Of a DNA stretch of 64,000 bases, positions 3,278 through 17,758 are shown in pieces (position 1 is the stretch's first letter; each line of letters opens with the position of its first letter). The stretch is from the IMG/VR virus record IMGVR_UViG_3300021185_001231. One strand, written 5' to 3'. Position numbers and translations under genes: made by a program. Source of the DNA: a virus. The notes beneath the pieces were generated by a model. The model did not search any database. It had not been told where the DNA came from and saw only the letters and a list, made by a program, of their open reading frames with translations.

Positions 3278-3578
3278 CTCCTGTAACTAAGCTACCTTCA
3301 TTATATGCTACCTCAAGAATATTCTCAAGTATTTTTGTGGTCTTGTTTTGTAAATCAACATCTTCAGATGTAAGACCATCAATGGGAGAGGAGACTACCG
3401 AAAAACTAAACTTCAGTCTATCCATCTCTCCGTCAAATTGTATGTTACCATACACAATTACAGTTTCAACAAAATCTCCAGTAAGAATTCTTACGTGCCA
3501 GGCTTGTTGGTTACTTGCTTCACCAACAGGTACTAACTCATAATCTACATTCTCAGTTTGATTAGATTGTTCATTCAT
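3219..3578 (-). CDS. acidic hypothetical protein in the T4 gp40 position
   Basis: Lies between uvsX and gp41 as gp40 does in T4; own promoter upstream; identity not verifiable. Confidence 0.5.
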   Translation of the reverse strand: MNEQSNQTENVDYELVPVGEASNQQAWHVRILTGDFVETVIVYGNIQFDGEMDRLKFSFSVVSSPIDGLTSEDVDLQNKTTKILENILEVAYNEGSLVTGDDEVGDNTGTDDSEESVNE

Positions 3579-3589
3579 AATAATACCCT

Positions 3590-3618
3590 ATTATACACTA
3601 TTCTGGGGGGTTTGTAAA
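3590..3618 (-). promoter_or_regulatory. sigma70-type promoter overlapping a hairpin after uvsX
   Basis: TTTACA-17-TATAAT; GGGGGTTT/AAACCCCC inverted repeat. Confidence 0.7.
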
Positions 3619-13607: not shown

Positions 13608-14543
13608 TTATTTTATCTCCACATTGGCCATGACTTCGGTAAGACAGGCAACTAAGTTAAGTTCGTGATCTGCCACGAACGCATTTTTGTATTGATAGTC
13701 CGCAAGTATAAGAACTAATTGAGGAATACTCTCGGACACTACATAGTCTTGCATATTGTCGTAGACATCTCTAAATATCGAAGCGGGTTCTAAGTCCATA
13801 TTATTGACAACCCACTTGCGCATTTTTTTGAAGTCCTTGTTTTTGATATGAGAAAATAGTTGTGCATAATTACTATTATTATCATTATCTATAACAGTAG
13901 TTAGTAAGGTACCACTAATAGAACCTCTTTGAGCTTCATTAAGGACTCGTCTCCAATCTGGGGCGTGGCGCATAATGAGACCAGCAACAACATCTTTATT
14001 ATACTCGACATCCTCTTCATTAAGAATAGTTTGAAGACGAGTCATAAACTGACCGCACAATTGAACCATTGTATTCTTACCAAAAGTAAACTCATAATTA
14101 GAACAACGAGAATGCAATGGTTCGATTATACGATTCTTAAAATTACAAGTGAGAATGAATCGACAGTTCTTAGAGAACTCTTCTATGAAACCTCTAAGGG
14201 CGGGTTGAGTAGACTGTGGATTAAGGTAGTCCGCCTCGTCAAGGATTACAACTTTGTAACCCCCTGAGAGAGATACGGACGAGGCGAACTGTTTAATCTT
14301 ACCACGTAGGGTATCAATATTACCCTCTTCAGAACCGTTGATGACGATATAGTCAAGTCCAAGTTCTTCGCACATGGCACGAGCGATAGTGGTTTTACCA
14401 GTACCAGCCGTACCACTAAACATCATATTGGGCATATCTCCACCATCCACAATAGACTGGAAAGTGTTTTTAAGATCTTTTGTGAGAATGGTTTCCGATA
14501 CTTTTGAAGGGCGATACTTCTCCACCCATAGAAATTCTTTCAT
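13608..14543 (-). CDS. gp44: clamp loader large subunit (gp44)
   Basis: LWVEKYRP, GTGKTT, DEAD, SRC motif. Confidence 0.97.
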   Translation of the reverse strand: MKEFLWVEKYRPSKVSETILTKDLKNTFQSIVDGGDMPNMMFSGTAGTGKTTIARAMCEELGLDYIVINGSEEGNIDTLRGKIKQFASSVSLSGGYKVVILDEADYLNPQSTQPALRGFIEEFSKNCRFILTCNFKNRIIEPLHSRCSNYEFTFGKNTMVQLCGQFMTRLQTILNEEDVEYNKDVVAGLIMRHAPDWRRVLNEAQRGSISGTLLTTVIDNDNNSNYAQLFSHIKNKDFKKMRKWVVNNMDLEPASIFRDVYDNMQDYVVSESIPQLVLILADYQYKNAFVADHELNLVACLTEVMANVEIK

Positions 14544-14575
14544 AGTTACTCCATAATATATAAGTCAATACACAT

Positions 14576-14604
14576 ATTATAACATAATACGTAAGGTTTG
14601 TCAA
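14576..14604 (-). promoter_or_regulatory. sigma70-type promoter for gp44
   Basis: TTGACA-17-TATAAT. Confidence 0.85.
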
Positions 14605-14625
14605 TCAGTTTCAAGTCTATCTTAA

Positions 14626-14767
14626 TAGTTGTGTACATGTTCGGCCCGCCCTATATCTAGACAACCAGATCTAAACATTAGTCTCTTAATCAGTCGACGG
14701 GCAACCGATTCGTATTCCAATCAACTAGGTTGTGTATGAAAGAACTGGACTGGAAAACAGTTCTTTC
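14626..14767 (-). ncRNA. candidate structured non-coding RNA downstream of the tRNA array
   Basis: No minus-strand ORF; perfect 10-bp hairpin at 14738-14767 and a nested rod (TAGTTG/CAACTA, TACG/TGTA, TCGGTTGCCC/GGGCGGGCCGA) at 14626-14727. Confidence 0.4.
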
Positions 14768-14778
14768 GGGTTTCGGTG

Positions 14779-14855
14779 TGGCACGCCCGGCACGATTCGA
14801 ACGTGCGACCCACAGCTTAGAAGGCTGTTGCTCTATCCAACTGAGCTACGGGCGC
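14779..14855 (-). tRNA. tRNA-Arg(TCT)
   Basis: GCGCCCG acceptor, AGCTCAGTTGGATAGAGC D arm, anticodon loop CTTCTAA, GTTCGAATC, encoded CCA. Confidence 0.95.
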
Positions 14856-14859
14856 ATAT

Positions 14860-14935
14860 TGGAGCGGATAGTCGGGTTCGAACCGACGACCTCGACCTTG
14901 GCAAGGTTGCGCTCTACCAACTGAGCTATATCCGC
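14860..14935 (-). tRNA. tRNA-Gly(GCC)
   Basis: GCGGATA acceptor, anticodon loop TTGCCAA, GGTTCGAACC, TCCA end. Confidence 0.95.
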
Positions 14936-14940
14936 AATAT

Positions 14941-15010
14941 TGGAGCGGAGTGTAGGAACTTCCCCTACCTTCAATGAGTGGTACTCATCGACCCAATAAC
15001 TGACCTCCGC
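14941..15010 (-). tRNA. atypical tRNA-Gly-like RNA (ACC anticodon, degenerate D arm, no TTC in T loop)
   Basis: 70 nt GCGGAG...CTCCGC-TCCA acceptor; stem-loop centred on ACC; GTAGG/CCTAC arm; sits between two real tRNAs with normal spacing. Confidence 0.6.
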
Positions 15011-15015
15011 AAATT

Positions 15016-15091
15016 TGGCATCCCATACCGGATTCGAACCGATGTTGCTAGGATGAAAACCTAGTGTCCTAACCAACTAGACGAATGGGAC
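15016..15091 (-). tRNA. tRNA-Glu(TTC)
   Basis: GTCCCAT acceptor, anticodon loop TTTTCAT, GGTTCGAATCC, encoded CCA. Confidence 0.95.
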
Positions 15092-15096
15092 TCTAG

Positions 15097-15288
15097 TTAC
15101 TTTTCCGTTTTTTCTTCCGAAACTTCTTCAACCAAACTAATAACTTGAATAGACTGTTCCCTTAGTTGTCCGATAGTAAGAAGTTCTTCACCCTTAAACC
15201 CACCTCTACCAGATATAGTATCAATAACAGCAACAGTAGATCTCGCAATTTTATTGGCTAGGTCATTTAATTTTTTCTGATCGGTCAT
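15097..15288 (-). CDS. hypothetical protein
   Basis: 63-aa ORF immediately after gp45; helical; no recognised motif. Confidence 0.7.
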   Translation of the reverse strand: MTDQKKLNDLANKIARSTVAVIDTISGRGGFKGEELLTIGQLREQSIQVISLVEEVSEEKTEK

Positions 15289-15292
15289 CTAT

Positions 15293-15970
15293 TTATTCCC
15301 CATATACCGATGATTTTTCTAAAGCGACAAAGTATTCAATATTAGAATGTGTGCTTCGGAAGTTACTTATAAGTTTGCTAGAGATAGAAACTTCGAAAGA
15401 TTCATTTACAACTTTGATGTTGTTAACGTTTAAAATAAAACTGAAGTCCATGTCTTCAACATAACTACCATCCACACTTATAGAGAAAGAGTTTGAAGTC
15501 GGATCTTTAGAATCTCCTACAGTTAAAGCGATAGATCCGTTTGATGGTGTTATAGAAATCTCTTGATGACCTAAAGCTGAAGAAGCACGTTTAATCTTGG
15601 CGAGAGTTTCCACACTCAAAGTGAACTTAACCTCACCTTCAGGCATTACAATGTCCTTTGTGGGGGTTGTTAACATGTCCGGATCAGAGTAAAAGTAACG
15701 AATAGAAGAGAGTCCTGAACCATCTGTGATGGTTGCATAATCTTCACTAAAACTTATATTGGGGCGTTCAACCAACCCAAGAACATTTAAGAACTCATTC
15801 AAATCATAAATACCAAATGATTTGGGAAAGGTCTCGTCGACAGTAGCTGAAGATACGACATTTCTCGCTACAGCCATAGTTTTAATAGTATTACCCTCAC
15901 TGATAACGATGTTAGGGTTAATGTTAGAGTAGTTCTTGAGAACTGATAGAGTACGATCTGATAATTCCAT
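15293..15970 (-). CDS. gp45: sliding clamp (gp45)
   Basis: MELSDRTLSVLKNYSNINP, FGIYDLNEFL, YFVALE. Confidence 0.95.
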   Translation of the reverse strand: MELSDRTLSVLKNYSNINPNIVISEGNTIKTMAVARNVVSSATVDETFPKSFGIYDLNEFLNVLGLVERPNISFSEDYATITDGSGLSSIRYFYSDPDMLTTPTKDIVMPEGEVKFTLSVETLAKIKRASSALGHQEISITPSNGSIALTVGDSKDPTSNSFSISVDGSYVEDMDFSFILNVNNIKVVNESFEVSISSKLISNFRSTHSNIEYFVALEKSSVYGE

Positions 15971-15999
15971 AATATAATTCCTTAGTTAATATGACATAC

Positions 16000-16028
16000 A
16001 TTATACACTATTTCTACACTTTTGTAAA
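16000..16028 (-). promoter_or_regulatory. sigma70-type promoter for gp45
   Basis: TTTACA-17-TATAAT with TAGTG extension. Confidence 0.75.
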
Positions 16029-16033
16029 GCACT

Positions 16034-17758
16034 TTATGCAACTTTTTTTAATGTGGAGAAATTTTGTTTCTTACTAAACACAAGTTTATTCTCAAAGTGA
16101 GCATCCTCAAGTTCAGCCTTATGAGAGATAACAAAAACATTTGTGTCGTCTCCCAAGGAGTAGATGATCTTCATTAAGTTATCTACACCGTCTTCGTCTA
16201 GAGAAGAATCAAAAGTCTCATCTAGAATCAAAAGATTTGTTGCAACAGAGTTCTTCATCTTAGCCACTTGTCTCCAAGTAAACAATAACGATAAATCTAT
16301 TCTCTGTTTCTCACCTTCAGAAAAAGAATCGTAGGTGAATGAATCACGATGTCTAGATCGGATAGTCTCTTGAAAACTTTCGTCTAAATCAAAATGAACA
16401 AAGAAGTCTAAAGTCTGTAAGTACTGATTCGTTAACTGATTTATAACAGGTATATACTGTTTAATAATTTTAGTCTTAATTCCAGTATCTTTCAAAAGTT
16501 CAGAAGATACCTGATTGTAAGAGTGTTGTTCATTTAACTTATACTTCTCATCTTGGAAGGAATGTAACTGATCTCGCAATTCATCCAAGTCTTTATTCGC
16601 TTGACCCATATCACCTTCACTATCAACAAGACTATCTATGTCAGCCTGTATTCTATCTATCTGAGTCTGGAATTGACTGATAGATTTATTGTTACTGTAC
16701 ATTTCTGTTTGATCTTTCTGAATAAGAACTAATTCCTCATTAACTCTTTCTATATCGGAATTGACTTCAGACAGTTCTTCAGTAACCTTATGCATTGCTT
16801 CATTTAGTTGTTTGGCACGAAACTGAGCTTTATCCTTCTTCTCTTTCCGTAAATCATCACCAATAACTTGTTCGCATGTTGGACAAGATTCGTTATCCTC
16901 AAAAAACTTAGCTTCCTTTACTATACCTCTAACCTGAGTTTTAAATTGTGTATTATAGGAAGTTAGTTTAGTTTTCTTTTCATTCAGACCTTTTATCTCA
17001 TTCGTGTGCGCTGGAAGTAACTCTTCAATCTTAGATGACAAATCAGTATTCTGTTTAGAAAATTGTTTTATCTTCTTATGAAGATCTTTAATATCTTTCT
17101 CTTTCTGTTTTCTACTCGCAACAGTAATAGCTGTAAGATCTCTAATGTATTTTTTCTGAGAATTTATCTTAGTGTTAACAACATCCAATCTGTGGTTATT
17201 ATCACTTATAGAGTTTTTCAATAATGCAATCTTCTCCTTTAGGAGTTGGTTCATTTTAGAAAATACATTAATATCAAGAAGATCTTCGATAACGTCACGT
17301 CTTTGCGTTTGACTCAATTGCATAAAGGGAACAAAAGAACCAGACCCTAGAACAACGATCTGATGAAAAGATTTATGATTAAGTTTAAGAATATTTTTTT
17401 CTAGTATCTGTTGATACTCTTTCGCATGGGAACTCTGATCGATCATCACTCCATTGACATAGATCTCAAAAATGTTTGGTTTTATACCACGAACTATTTT
17501 ATAGTTCTTAGAACCAATACTAAACTCAACCTCAACCATAGTAGACTTGGCATTTATACTATTGACGAGTTGAGGTTTAGATATCTTCCTATGAGCCTTA
17601 CCAAACAAACCGAAGGATAGAGCATCCAACATAGTAGATTTCCCAGCGCCATTCTGACCAACAACTAATGTAGTGGACGAATCTTGCAAATCTATTTCAG
17701 TGAAACTATTTCCGGTAGATAAAAAATTTTTATATCTAAGTTTCTTGAATATTATCAT
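16034..17758 (-). CDS. gp46: Rad50/SbcC-like recombination ATPase (gp46)
   Basis: GQNGAGKS, coiled coil with CPTC zinc hook, FSEGEKQRID, LDETFD. Confidence 0.97.
   Translation of the reverse strand: MIIFKKLRYKNFLSTGNSFTEIDLQDSSTTLVVGQNGAGKSTMLDALSFGLFGKAHRKISKPQLVNSINAKSTMVEVEFSIGSKNYKIVRGIKPNIFEIYVNGVMIDQSSHAKEYQQILEKNILKLNHKSFHQIVVLGSGSFVPFMQLSQTQRRDVIEDLLDINVFSKMNQLLKEKIALLKNSISDNNHRLDVVNTKINSQKKYIRDLTAITVASRKQKEKDIKDLHKKIKQFSKQNTDLSSKIEELLPAHTNEIKGLNEKKTKLTSYNTQFKTQVRGIVKEAKFFEDNESCPTCEQVIGDDLRKEKKDKAQFRAKQLNEAMHKVTEELSEVNSDIERVNEELVLIQKDQTEMYSNNKSISQFQTQIDRIQADIDSLVDSEGDMGQANKDLDELRDQLHSFQDEKYKLNEQHSYNQVSSELLKDTGIKTKIIKQYIPVINQLTNQYLQTLDFFVHFDLDESFQETIRSRHRDSFTYDSFSEGEKQRIDLSLLFTWRQVAKMKNSVATNLLILDETFDSSLDEDGVDNLMKIIYSLGDDTNVFVISHKAELEDAHFENKLVFSKKQNFSTLKKVA

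Follow-up and report, generated by a model that had tools for sequence, protein, structure and literature searches.

Within a 64,000 nt stretch of viral DNA (IMG/VR record IMGVR_UViG_3300021185_001231; hereafter the window, meaning the whole of this stretch), a row of tRNA genes contains a 70 nt element, which we call X, that is a real RNA gene under selection and not a pseudogene. Judged from its sequence, X is a derivative of tRNA-Gly that has been stripped of the D arm and the elbow, probably one derived from a canonical tRNA-Gly gene such as the neighboring tRNA-Gly(GCC), with which it has acceptor pairs 1-5, U73 and CCA in common and which gives a weak match (23-27 bits) to a covariance model of X. 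A previous inspection of the window, made from the letters without database searches (the sequence-only reading), had pointed to X inside the tRNA array, and the 70 nt it quoted are the reverse complement of positions 14941-15010, between tRNA-Glu and tRNA-Gly(GCC).

X retains a 7 base pair (bp) acceptor stem with discriminator and 3´ CCA, stacked on a 5 bp T stem. As had been read from the letters, G1-C72, C2-G71, G3-C70, U73 and an encoded CCA are all present, to which we add G4-C69, A5-U68 and G6-C67; the T loop is GGAAGUU, with UUC missing; and the D arm is reduced, the 4 bp D stem being absent and a 2 bp stub left. There is no four-arm cloverleaf with a 3-4 bp D stem and a G18-G19/U55-C56 elbow. 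As in tRNAs of the mitochondrial type, the D arm is replaced by an 11-12 nt connector with a 2 bp stub, and the anticodon stem is extended to 8 bp. The extension to 9 bp that had been proposed stood in part: eight pairs are found in every homologue, and the ninth (U28-A32) is confined to the window copy. Arm lengths are constant, 7+5 bp for the acceptor/T helix and 8+2 bp for the other limb, the latter likely equivalent to approximately the ten stacked layers of a normal anticodon/D domain. No D-loop/T-loop kissing pair conserved over lineages was seen by eye.

Scoring with tRNA finders, which had been suggested as a check, gave a split answer. With default settings, ARAGORN called the three neighboring tRNAs and not X, and a search of X against Rfam 15 gave no match at the gathering cut-off or at E <= 10, the tRNA family RF00005 included; the Rfam tRNA model scores the three neighbors at 59-68 bits. 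ARAGORN calls X only at -ps80 or in -mt -ps mode, and in mitochondrial mode with a lowered threshold it reports exactly these 70 nt as 'D-loop mtRNA-Gly(acc)'. Folded alone, X forms a three-way junction, with a z score of only -2.2, such that the single sequence proves little.

Homologues and covariation

To find homologues, we collected 80 viral contigs via the protein of gp45, the sliding clamp gene near X, scanned IMG/VR and JGI metagenomes with patterns for each half, 3´ and 5´, and for the shape as a whole, and built two covariance models, R1 and then R2. X scores 94.5 bits with R1, and the covariance-model matches to its homologues have E values of 1e-8 to 1e-24. The family comprises 20 distinct sequences of 66-70 nt, on approximately 30 marine or aquatic viral or metagenome contigs.

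The alignment of these 20 sequences was fitted to the model and so favors structure, and the same covariation trend was already visible in a MAFFT alignment of 12 close copies. Paired cells make up 95.7% of the 20-sequence alignment, compared to 81.0% in shuffles, and the covariation score is 0.445, compared to 0.146 in shuffles, none of 500 of which scored as high, and 0.05-0.08 in controls with the partners shifted by 1-3 columns. Double-sided changes occur in 13 of the 22 pairs (65 cells), with compensatory changes in all four helices, so that the covariation check proposed for homologues came out in favor of the fold. In the long anticodon-like stem, all eight pairs covary, including the loop-closing pair (G-C in 18 sequences, A-U in 2), as do both pairs of the D stub (UA/CG/UG/GC and CG/GC/UA), which was proposed independently by RNAalifold. 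The T stem is 100% paired, with two covarying pairs, and acceptor pair 7-66, which is G.A in the window, is A-U, U-A, G.U or U.G in 10 of the 20 copies. The divergent copy L042/L115, found by the model within a gp45 locus with no acceptor pattern involved, differs from the window copy at every one of the eight anticodon-like pairs, at the two pairs of the D stub and at two in the T stem; it keeps the acceptor GCGGAGG/ACUCCGC, U73, CCA, the AG connector and a loop, UUCCC.

Among close relatives, X is 91-94% identical to the window copy, with 96-100% identity for the canonical tRNAs and 80-91% for the DNA of gp45, gp44 and a small open reading frame (ORF) next to gp45. The copy in L084 is 87% identical to that in the window, and the gp45 DNA 71%. 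Conservation stops exactly at G1 and CCA, and the flanks are unalignable across lineages. Since X is more conserved than the flanking coding DNA, it is under purifying selection, slightly weaker than that on true tRNAs. The suggestion that the intact stems reflect selection and not decay is thus upheld by the compensatory changes in four helices, by an identity (87-94%) above that of the flanking coding DNA (71-90%), and by the retention of X in the absence of canonical neighbors; no canonical tRNA lies near X in L084, L091, L092, L099, L144, L148 or L154.

Invariant positions and glycyl-tRNA synthetase identity

Invariant or nearly so across the family are acceptor pairs 1-6 (G-C, C-G, G-C, G-C, A-U, G-C), U73, CCA, the CC of the loop, and the connector. 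Acceptor pairs 1-6 are identical in the 20 distinct sequences, bar one G1.A72 (L089), and U73 shows no variation. CCA is intact in 19 of 20, with CUA in L085, while L089 keeps CCA alongside its G1.A72 mismatch. The loop follows N-N-C-C-M, with CC at positions 3-4 in every sequence and variation at positions 1, 2 and 5. As defined by experiment, the identity of bacterial tRNA-Gly resides in U73, G1-C72, C2-G71, C35 and C36 (PMC9976931), with a preference for purine 4 - pyrimidine 69 and, in some systems, a contribution of G3-C70 (PMC9976931, PMC10464925). The letters retained by X had been taken for the bacterial GlyRS (glycyl-tRNA synthetase) identity set, and the match to the published set is complete (PMC9976931): U73, G1-C72, C2-G71, G3-C70, purine 4 - pyrimidine 69, C35 and C36 are all found, with the single G1.A72 as exception. 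According to work cited in PMC10464925, E. coli GlyRS charges an acceptor/T minihelix. The arm lengths of X would preserve the distance from the loop to the CCA end, and such fixed lengths would be selected by any factor that, like GlyRS, contacts the CC loop and the CCA end simultaneously.

The anticodon-like loop and decoding

The loop sequences are UACCA, AACCA, GACCA, UGCCC, UUCCC, UACCC and GUCCA, and their triplets are all Gly anticodons. Across homologues, the first 'anticodon' base drifts between A, G and U with no relation to context, and this speaks against a GGU-specific A34 decoder, one of the roles raised by the sequence-only reading, as the conserved function. A normal 7 nt anticodon loop, with U33 and purine 37, likewise did not survive comparison. 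When the loop is read as 7 nt, positions 32/38 are always Watson-Crick paired and covary (G-C to A-U), closing the loop to 5 nt; 'U33' is kept in 14 of the 20 copies and is A or G in 6, the nearest relatives of the window included; and 13 of 20 have C, a pyrimidine, at 'position 37'. The T loops (GGAAGUU, UGAAACU, UGAGAYU, UGCAAUG and similar) are not conserved in sequence and never contain UUC. With neither U54-U55-C56 nor G18-G19, the elbow contacted by the ribosome and RNase P is gone. Decoding by X would be redundant in L090 and L095, where its loop reads GCC and its neighbor is a canonical tRNA-Gly(GCC). Given a 5 nt loop closed by a covarying pair, a U33 and a purine 37 that are not maintained, a drifting wobble base and, in some phages, an anticodon duplicated next door, X is probably not an ordinary decoder.

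We also noted other phage tRNA-Gly paralogues with unusual loops. In L111 (7938-8010, plus strand; also L116 and L132), a tRNA-Gly-like gene folds as a cloverleaf and its T loop is canonical, but its anticodon loop has 6 nt (A-UUCC-U). ARAGORN reports it as 'tRNA-??? (tc)', and its row, of 13 tRNA genes on an unrelated viral contig, has a canonical tRNA-Gly(UCC) ending 3 nt before it. In L125 (3462-3534, minus strand; also L135 and L143), a tRNA-Gly-like gene that is not called by ARAGORN has the same acceptor stem, a canonical T loop and a 6 nt loop (G-UCCC-C) closed by G-C. X and the L111 and L125 types together suggest a constricted anticodon loop as a recurring feature of phage tRNA-Gly paralogues. 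A solitary 74 nt phage tRNA-Gly, with ACC in a normal 7 nt loop, T loop UGCGAUU (G55) and a D loop lacking GG, is found in L119 (8536-8609, minus), L121 (8742-8815, plus), L127 (5104-5177, minus) and L149 (6148-6221, plus), and A34 glycine tRNAs therefore do exist on viral contigs.

Possible functions of X

Taken as a class, the readings in which X is a charged or chargeable tRNA-Gly mimic that acts away from the decoding center, as a decoy or as a toxin-resistant back-up, have in our judgment about an even chance of being right. Under such a scheme, host tRNA-processing enzymes would excise X from the gp45-tRNA transcript, with RNase P acting at the 5´ end, and host GlyRS would bind and most probably glycylate it. 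The 8 bp arm and 2 bp stub would provide approximately ten stacked pairs and so keep the CC loop and the CCA end correctly spaced. The mechanism that we favor is speculative: X, whether charged or not, might then show a tRNA-Gly acceptor end to factors that read only that end, and could serve as a mimic or back-up in conflicts with host toxins directed at tRNA-Gly, such as FaRel2-type toxSAS and TacT-type GNAT acetylases.

FaRel2 selects tRNA-Gly via G1-C72, C2-G71, G4-C69 and purine 5 - pyrimidine 68, and modified a tRNA-Gly acceptor/T minihelix in assays; toxSAS enzymes are implicated in anti-phage defense, and the modification can be undone by a small alarmone hydrolase of phage origin (doi 10.1101/2024.07.05.602228). 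Gly-tRNA-Gly is acetylated by TacT, a toxin of the GNAT class, which reads U73 and G71 (PMC9976931). X has all four pairs and the free CCA recognized by FaRel2-type enzymes, as well as the TacT determinants U73 and G71. Taken by itself, this anti-toxin mechanism is speculative, and we put its odds low. Similarly doubtful is a wider proposal, that the X family represents the first natural arm-reduced tRNAs outside mitochondria, phage-specific glycyl-tRNA mimics that would be charged by GlyRS, barred from decoding, and used as acceptor-end decoys or toxin-resistant back-ups against immune effectors that target tRNA-Gly (toxSAS pyrophosphokinases, GNAT acetylases), with the phage tRNA-Gly paralogues with 6 nt loops as independent solutions.

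Several observations weigh against X as a charged mimic. A decoy that acts stoichiometrically offers little protection from an enzyme that turns over. The GlyRS of L. plantarum needs an L-shaped body and hardly charges an engineered tRNA-Gly without a D arm (PMC10464925); X has neither D arm nor elbow. In 8 of the 20 sequences, the later ones, the uniform acceptor was a condition of the search pattern; for L042 and the first 12 homologues, the 5´ acceptor strand was unconstrained by the search. The only two variants without tRNA-Gly between X and tRNA-Arg both have defects at the 3´ end of X, with CUA for CCA in L085, L087 and L104, and G1.A72 in L089 and L096. X and tRNA-Gly have an identical 3´ end and spacer, UCCGCUCCA-AUAU, which could mediate deletion, and the blemishes may be scars of deletion between the identical 3´ ends or may reflect decay of X after the loss of tRNA-Gly. 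RNA-library contigs from three marine metatranscriptome studies cover X, two 151 nt contigs being identical to the window and two longer ones, of the L082-type variant, spanning Gly-X-Glu; we do not count them as expression, since ends, strand and level are not visible in them and DNA carry-over is possible. A functional module of X and a RelA/SpoT-type HD_4 hydrolase resembling small alarmone hydrolases, which adjoins X in some lineages (described below), was rejected as a general arrangement: X is found at only 3 of 80 sampled hydrolase loci, with ordinary tRNAs downstream of many others, and the hydrolase gene is missing from the 91-93% complete X-bearing genomes G004 and G007, making the link lineage-specific. 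Finally, the unadapted HisRS, EF-Tu and ribosomes of E. coli can use an engineered tRNA lacking the D arm, its degradation by PNPase being the limiting step (PMC11551756).

This last result bears directly on the possibility that X serves as a true elongator, a tRNA-Gly whose fold lacks the D arm as in mitochondria; such a tRNA would be used by GlyRS, EF-Tu and the host ribosome, would open its loop to 7 nt on the ribosome, and would show isoacceptor switches among ACC, GCC and UCC. The use of a D-armless tRNA by the unadapted E. coli machinery (PMC11551756) is our reason for keeping this reading as a serious, if somewhat unlikely, option. X also lies in tRNA rows with tRNA-like spacing, carries the full Gly identity set, every loop triplet is a Gly anticodon, and the 7 bp acceptor and 5 bp T stem make up the helix bound by EF-Tu; ARAGORN in mitochondrial mode models X as a D-loop tRNA-Gly, and some lineages keep X without a canonical tRNA-Gly. 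These points have to be set against positions 32/38, which are paired and covary in all copies, the A or G at U33 in 6 of 20 and the C at 37 in 13 of 20, the duplication of the adjoining tRNA-Gly(GCC) in L090 and L095, and the missing T-loop motif and elbow for ribosome contacts.

Glycine could alternatively be carried for use outside the ribosome, with X charged by GlyRS, kept out of translation and used by a phage or host transferase, as in the FemXAB system; tRNA-Gly species dedicated to cell-wall synthesis provide a precedent. Gly identity is kept in X while decoding features are relaxed, as a carrier would require, and uses of aminoacyl-tRNAs beyond translation are listed in PMC9976931. 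None of five viral records carrying X, including two that are 91-93% complete, yielded a FemAB (PF02388) or Acetyltransf_6 (PF13480) homologue, although a partner might be encoded by the host, and no protein gene is consistently linked to X, leaving the carrier reading very unlikely in our view.

An uncharged structural signal, an RNase P or 3´-end processing site that punctuates or stabilizes neighboring mRNAs such as that of the hydrolase, would fit the lineages in which X abuts or overlaps the 3´ end of the HD_4 ORF (four lineages, with a 24 nt overlap) and the several phages in which X stands alone between protein genes. Such tRNA-like processing signals are known in mitochondria. This reading leaves the invariant CC and U73, the acceptor 1-6 sequence and the fixed 8 bp arm unexplained, and true tRNAs flanking X in the window already supply processing sites; we regard it as remote. 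That X is a functionless, decaying duplicate of the neighboring tRNA-Gly gene, as might be read from the acceptor pairs 1-5 and D-loop-like stretch common to both, the 3´-end defects in two lineages, a possible relic at the syntenic site in X-negative relatives and the absence of X from complete related genomes, is barely credible against compensatory changes in all helices at constant lengths, conservation above that of flanking coding DNA, and retention in several genomic contexts by phages with a gp45 only 63-72% identical to that of the window.

Comparison with known tRNAs

Relative to canonical tRNA-Gly (RF00005), X has the same 7 bp acceptor with G1-C72, C2-G71 and G3-C70, U73, CCA, 5 bp T stem with 7 nt loop, C35-C36 and spacing in the row; it differs in having no 4 bp D stem, elbow or UUC, an arm of 8 bp and 5 nt instead of 5 bp and 7 nt, a 2 nt connector and a total of 66-70 nt. 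The metazoan mitochondrial tRNA-Ser(AGY) type resembles X in the short loop replacing the D arm, the extended anticodon stem and the non-canonical T loop. Those tRNAs are organellar, specify serine and have a 7 nt loop with U33, whereas X has glycine identity, lacks such a normal decoding loop and is encoded by phages, on T4-like contigs with gp44, gp45, gp46 and gp47. The staphylococcal non-proteinogenic tRNA-Gly species, substrates of FemXAB, resemble X in keeping GlyRS identity while features for translation are weakened. They are full cloverleaves with a normal anticodon loop and few base differences, and the Fem transferases they serve are known; we found no such partner in the X-bearing phage records. 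The tRNAs of phage T5 that counter retron and PARIS effectors, as discussed in doi 10.1101/2024.07.05.602228, are likewise extra phage tRNAs of the targeted identity, the idea being that a remodeled body evades or absorbs the effector; unlike X, they are canonical, decode, and carry few substitutions. The engineered 'mini HisT' of E. coli (PMC11551756) is a D-armless adaptor whose fold is tolerated by a bacterial aminoacyl-tRNA synthetase, EF-Tu and the ribosome; in contrast to the natural and conserved X, it was built synthetically with histidine identity, its anticodon loop is normal, and it needed a pnp mutation to be stable.

A full-text literature search turned up no phage or bacterial tRNA described as arm-reduced, and Rfam 15 contains no family for X. 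According to a 2024 paper (PMC11551756), natural arm-less tRNAs are known only from mitochondria, and known bacterial tRNAs are all cloverleaves. It is well supported that X represents a real gene family of tRNA derivatives whose fold is known from mitochondria and whose 'non-proteinogenic' glycine theme is known from staphylococci. Coming from viruses of bacteria, the family breaks the cloverleaf-only rule yet keeps the letters read by GlyRS, and so offers a natural test case for the minimal tRNA accepted by a bacterial synthetase, RNase P, EF-Tu and the ribosome. Because X is not called by ARAGORN or Rfam, it also raises the question of whether an entire class of phage RNA genes escapes standard annotation, and it bears on why phages carry tRNA genes beyond codon supply, given that two classes of anti-translation toxins pick tRNA-Gly by the same acceptor stem.

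Distribution of the family

The stretch of the window is found in marine metagenomes from at least 13 studies. Of the related genomes, two complete ones and one that is 87% complete lack X, as does phage C48C1, the closest named relative; X is therefore an accessory gene. A scan of prokaryotes for the acceptor pattern, with one genome per species for 185,579 species, gave no convincing X; among the 105 pattern matches, only L208, L234 and L164 reached 23-30 bits, and we take all three as chance, the fold of L234 not fitting and L208 lying inside a long ORF on a high-GC contig. A blastn search of X against 50,697 GenBank phage records (INPHARED) gave one 21 nt chance match only. A descriptor for a 7 bp acceptor, 8 bp stem, 5 nt loop, 5 bp T stem and CCA found no other acceptor or loop types in 1.3 Mb and then 0.4 Mb of viral loci, which were picked via gp45, the Gly pattern or the hydrolase gene and so are no fair census of identities.

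In the X-negative relatives L027, L030 and L032, the site after gp45 and the small ORF (L027:4880-4945, plus strand) contains an 8 bp hairpin whose loop is UUCCU and, after it, a terminator hairpin rich in G+C with a U run; the L027 genome is complete. The site matches R2 weakly (24.9 bits), with a 6 bp acceptor-like pairing possible, and from its sequence the hairpin may be a relic or a re-use of X.

The locus and its neighboring genes

The window comes from a T4-like myovirus of marine origin, in which X is surrounded by homologues of T4 gp47/gp46 (an SbcCD-like nuclease), the gp45 sliding clamp and the gp44 clamp loader, together with a MazG-like pyrophosphatase; the gp45 identity to C48C1 (Kyanoviridae) is 62%. 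On the minus strand, gp45 is followed by a 63-codon ORF and then by the four RNA genes, each ending in an encoded CCA, with spacers of 5, 5 and 4 nt in the tRNA-Glu / X / tRNA-Gly / tRNA-Arg row (Table 1). The promoter upstream of gp45, judged by its consensus match, probably starts a transcript of gp45, the small ORF and the tRNA row. No intrinsic terminator, that is, a hairpin followed by a T run, was found in positions 14400-16100, which cover the tRNA row. Between this row and the clamp-loader gene (14576-14604, minus strand), we also noted a perfect sigma-70 consensus, TTGACA and TATAAT spaced by 17 nt and with TG, an unusual 12/12 match.

Table 1. Coordinates of X, its parts and its neighbors in the window, of HD_4 hydrolase ORFs that run into X, and gene contexts of X across records
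Feature	Position or record	Strand	Basis or remark
tRNA-like element X	14941-15010	minus	70 nt, D-arm-reduced, tRNA-Gly-like
Acceptor stem 5´ strand, nt 1-7, GCGGAGG	15004-15010	minus	alignment
Vestigial D arm, nt 8-18 (2 bp stem, 7 nt loop)	14993-15003	minus	RNAalifold
Anticodon-like arm, nt 20-40 (8 bp stem, 5 nt loop UACCA at 14979-14983)	14971-14991	minus	covariation
Connector AG, 2 nt, replacing the variable loop	14969-14970	minus	AG or G in 19/20; GU in L114
T-like arm, nt 43-59 (5 bp stem, 7 nt loop GGAAGUU, without U54-U55-C56)	14952-14968	minus	alignment
Acceptor 3´ strand (nt 60-66), discriminator U73 (14944), encoded CCA (14941-14943)	14941-14951	minus	alignment
tRNA-Glu(UUC), canonical, upstream of X	15016-15091	minus	ARAGORN; Rfam 59.2 bits
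tRNA-Gly(GCC), canonical, downstream of X	14860-14935	minus	ARAGORN and Rfam
tRNA-Arg(UCU), canonical, final gene of the row	14779-14855	minus	ARAGORN and Rfam
Sigma-70-like promoter before gp45	16000-16028	minus	11/12 consensus matches; consensus match only
HD_4 ORF	L148:3016-3552		X at 3529-3595; C-terminus ..AELIDGL
HD_4 ORF	L144:213-749		X at 726-792; C-terminus ..AELIDGL
HD_4 ORF	L114:2885-3484		X at 3461-3528; C-terminus ..AELIAEL
Context Glu-X-Gly-Arg	window, L082, L083, L088
Context Glu-X-Arg (without tRNA-Gly)	L085, L087, L089, L104
Context X-Gly ... Ala	L090, L093
Context Arg-X-Leu	L115
Context Glu-X	L100, L105
Context solitary between protein genes	L084, L091, L092, L099, L144, L148, L154, L114, L117

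No protein gene was consistently linked to X, its neighbors varying by lineage, and the large ORFs downstream of X match no Pfam family and are not homologous across lineages. The ORF of the small HD_4 hydrolase borders X in four lineages, X either following it directly or sharing 24 nt with it. The final 24 nt of this ORF are the first 24 nt of X in L148, L144 and L114, and since the ORF ends inside X, excision at G1 would take the stop codon off the hydrolase mRNA. In L091, L094 and L099, the stop codon lies 1 nt ahead of X. The adjacency most likely reflects a shared hot spot for tRNA genes. Among 80 viral loci with an HD_4 hydrolase (L264-L343), ordinary tRNA genes or rows often lie within 0-2.5 kb downstream; a tRNA-Tyr starts just inside the end of the hydrolase match in L307 and L308, and a tRNA-Arg lies 150 nt downstream in L279. 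There may thus be a general hydrolase-tRNA neighborhood in HD_4-bearing phages. On another T4-like viral contig, the ORF directly upstream of X (L113:6379-7797, minus strand) encodes 472 amino acids with a di-haem cytochrome c peroxidase (CCP_MauG) domain, an odd auxiliary gene.

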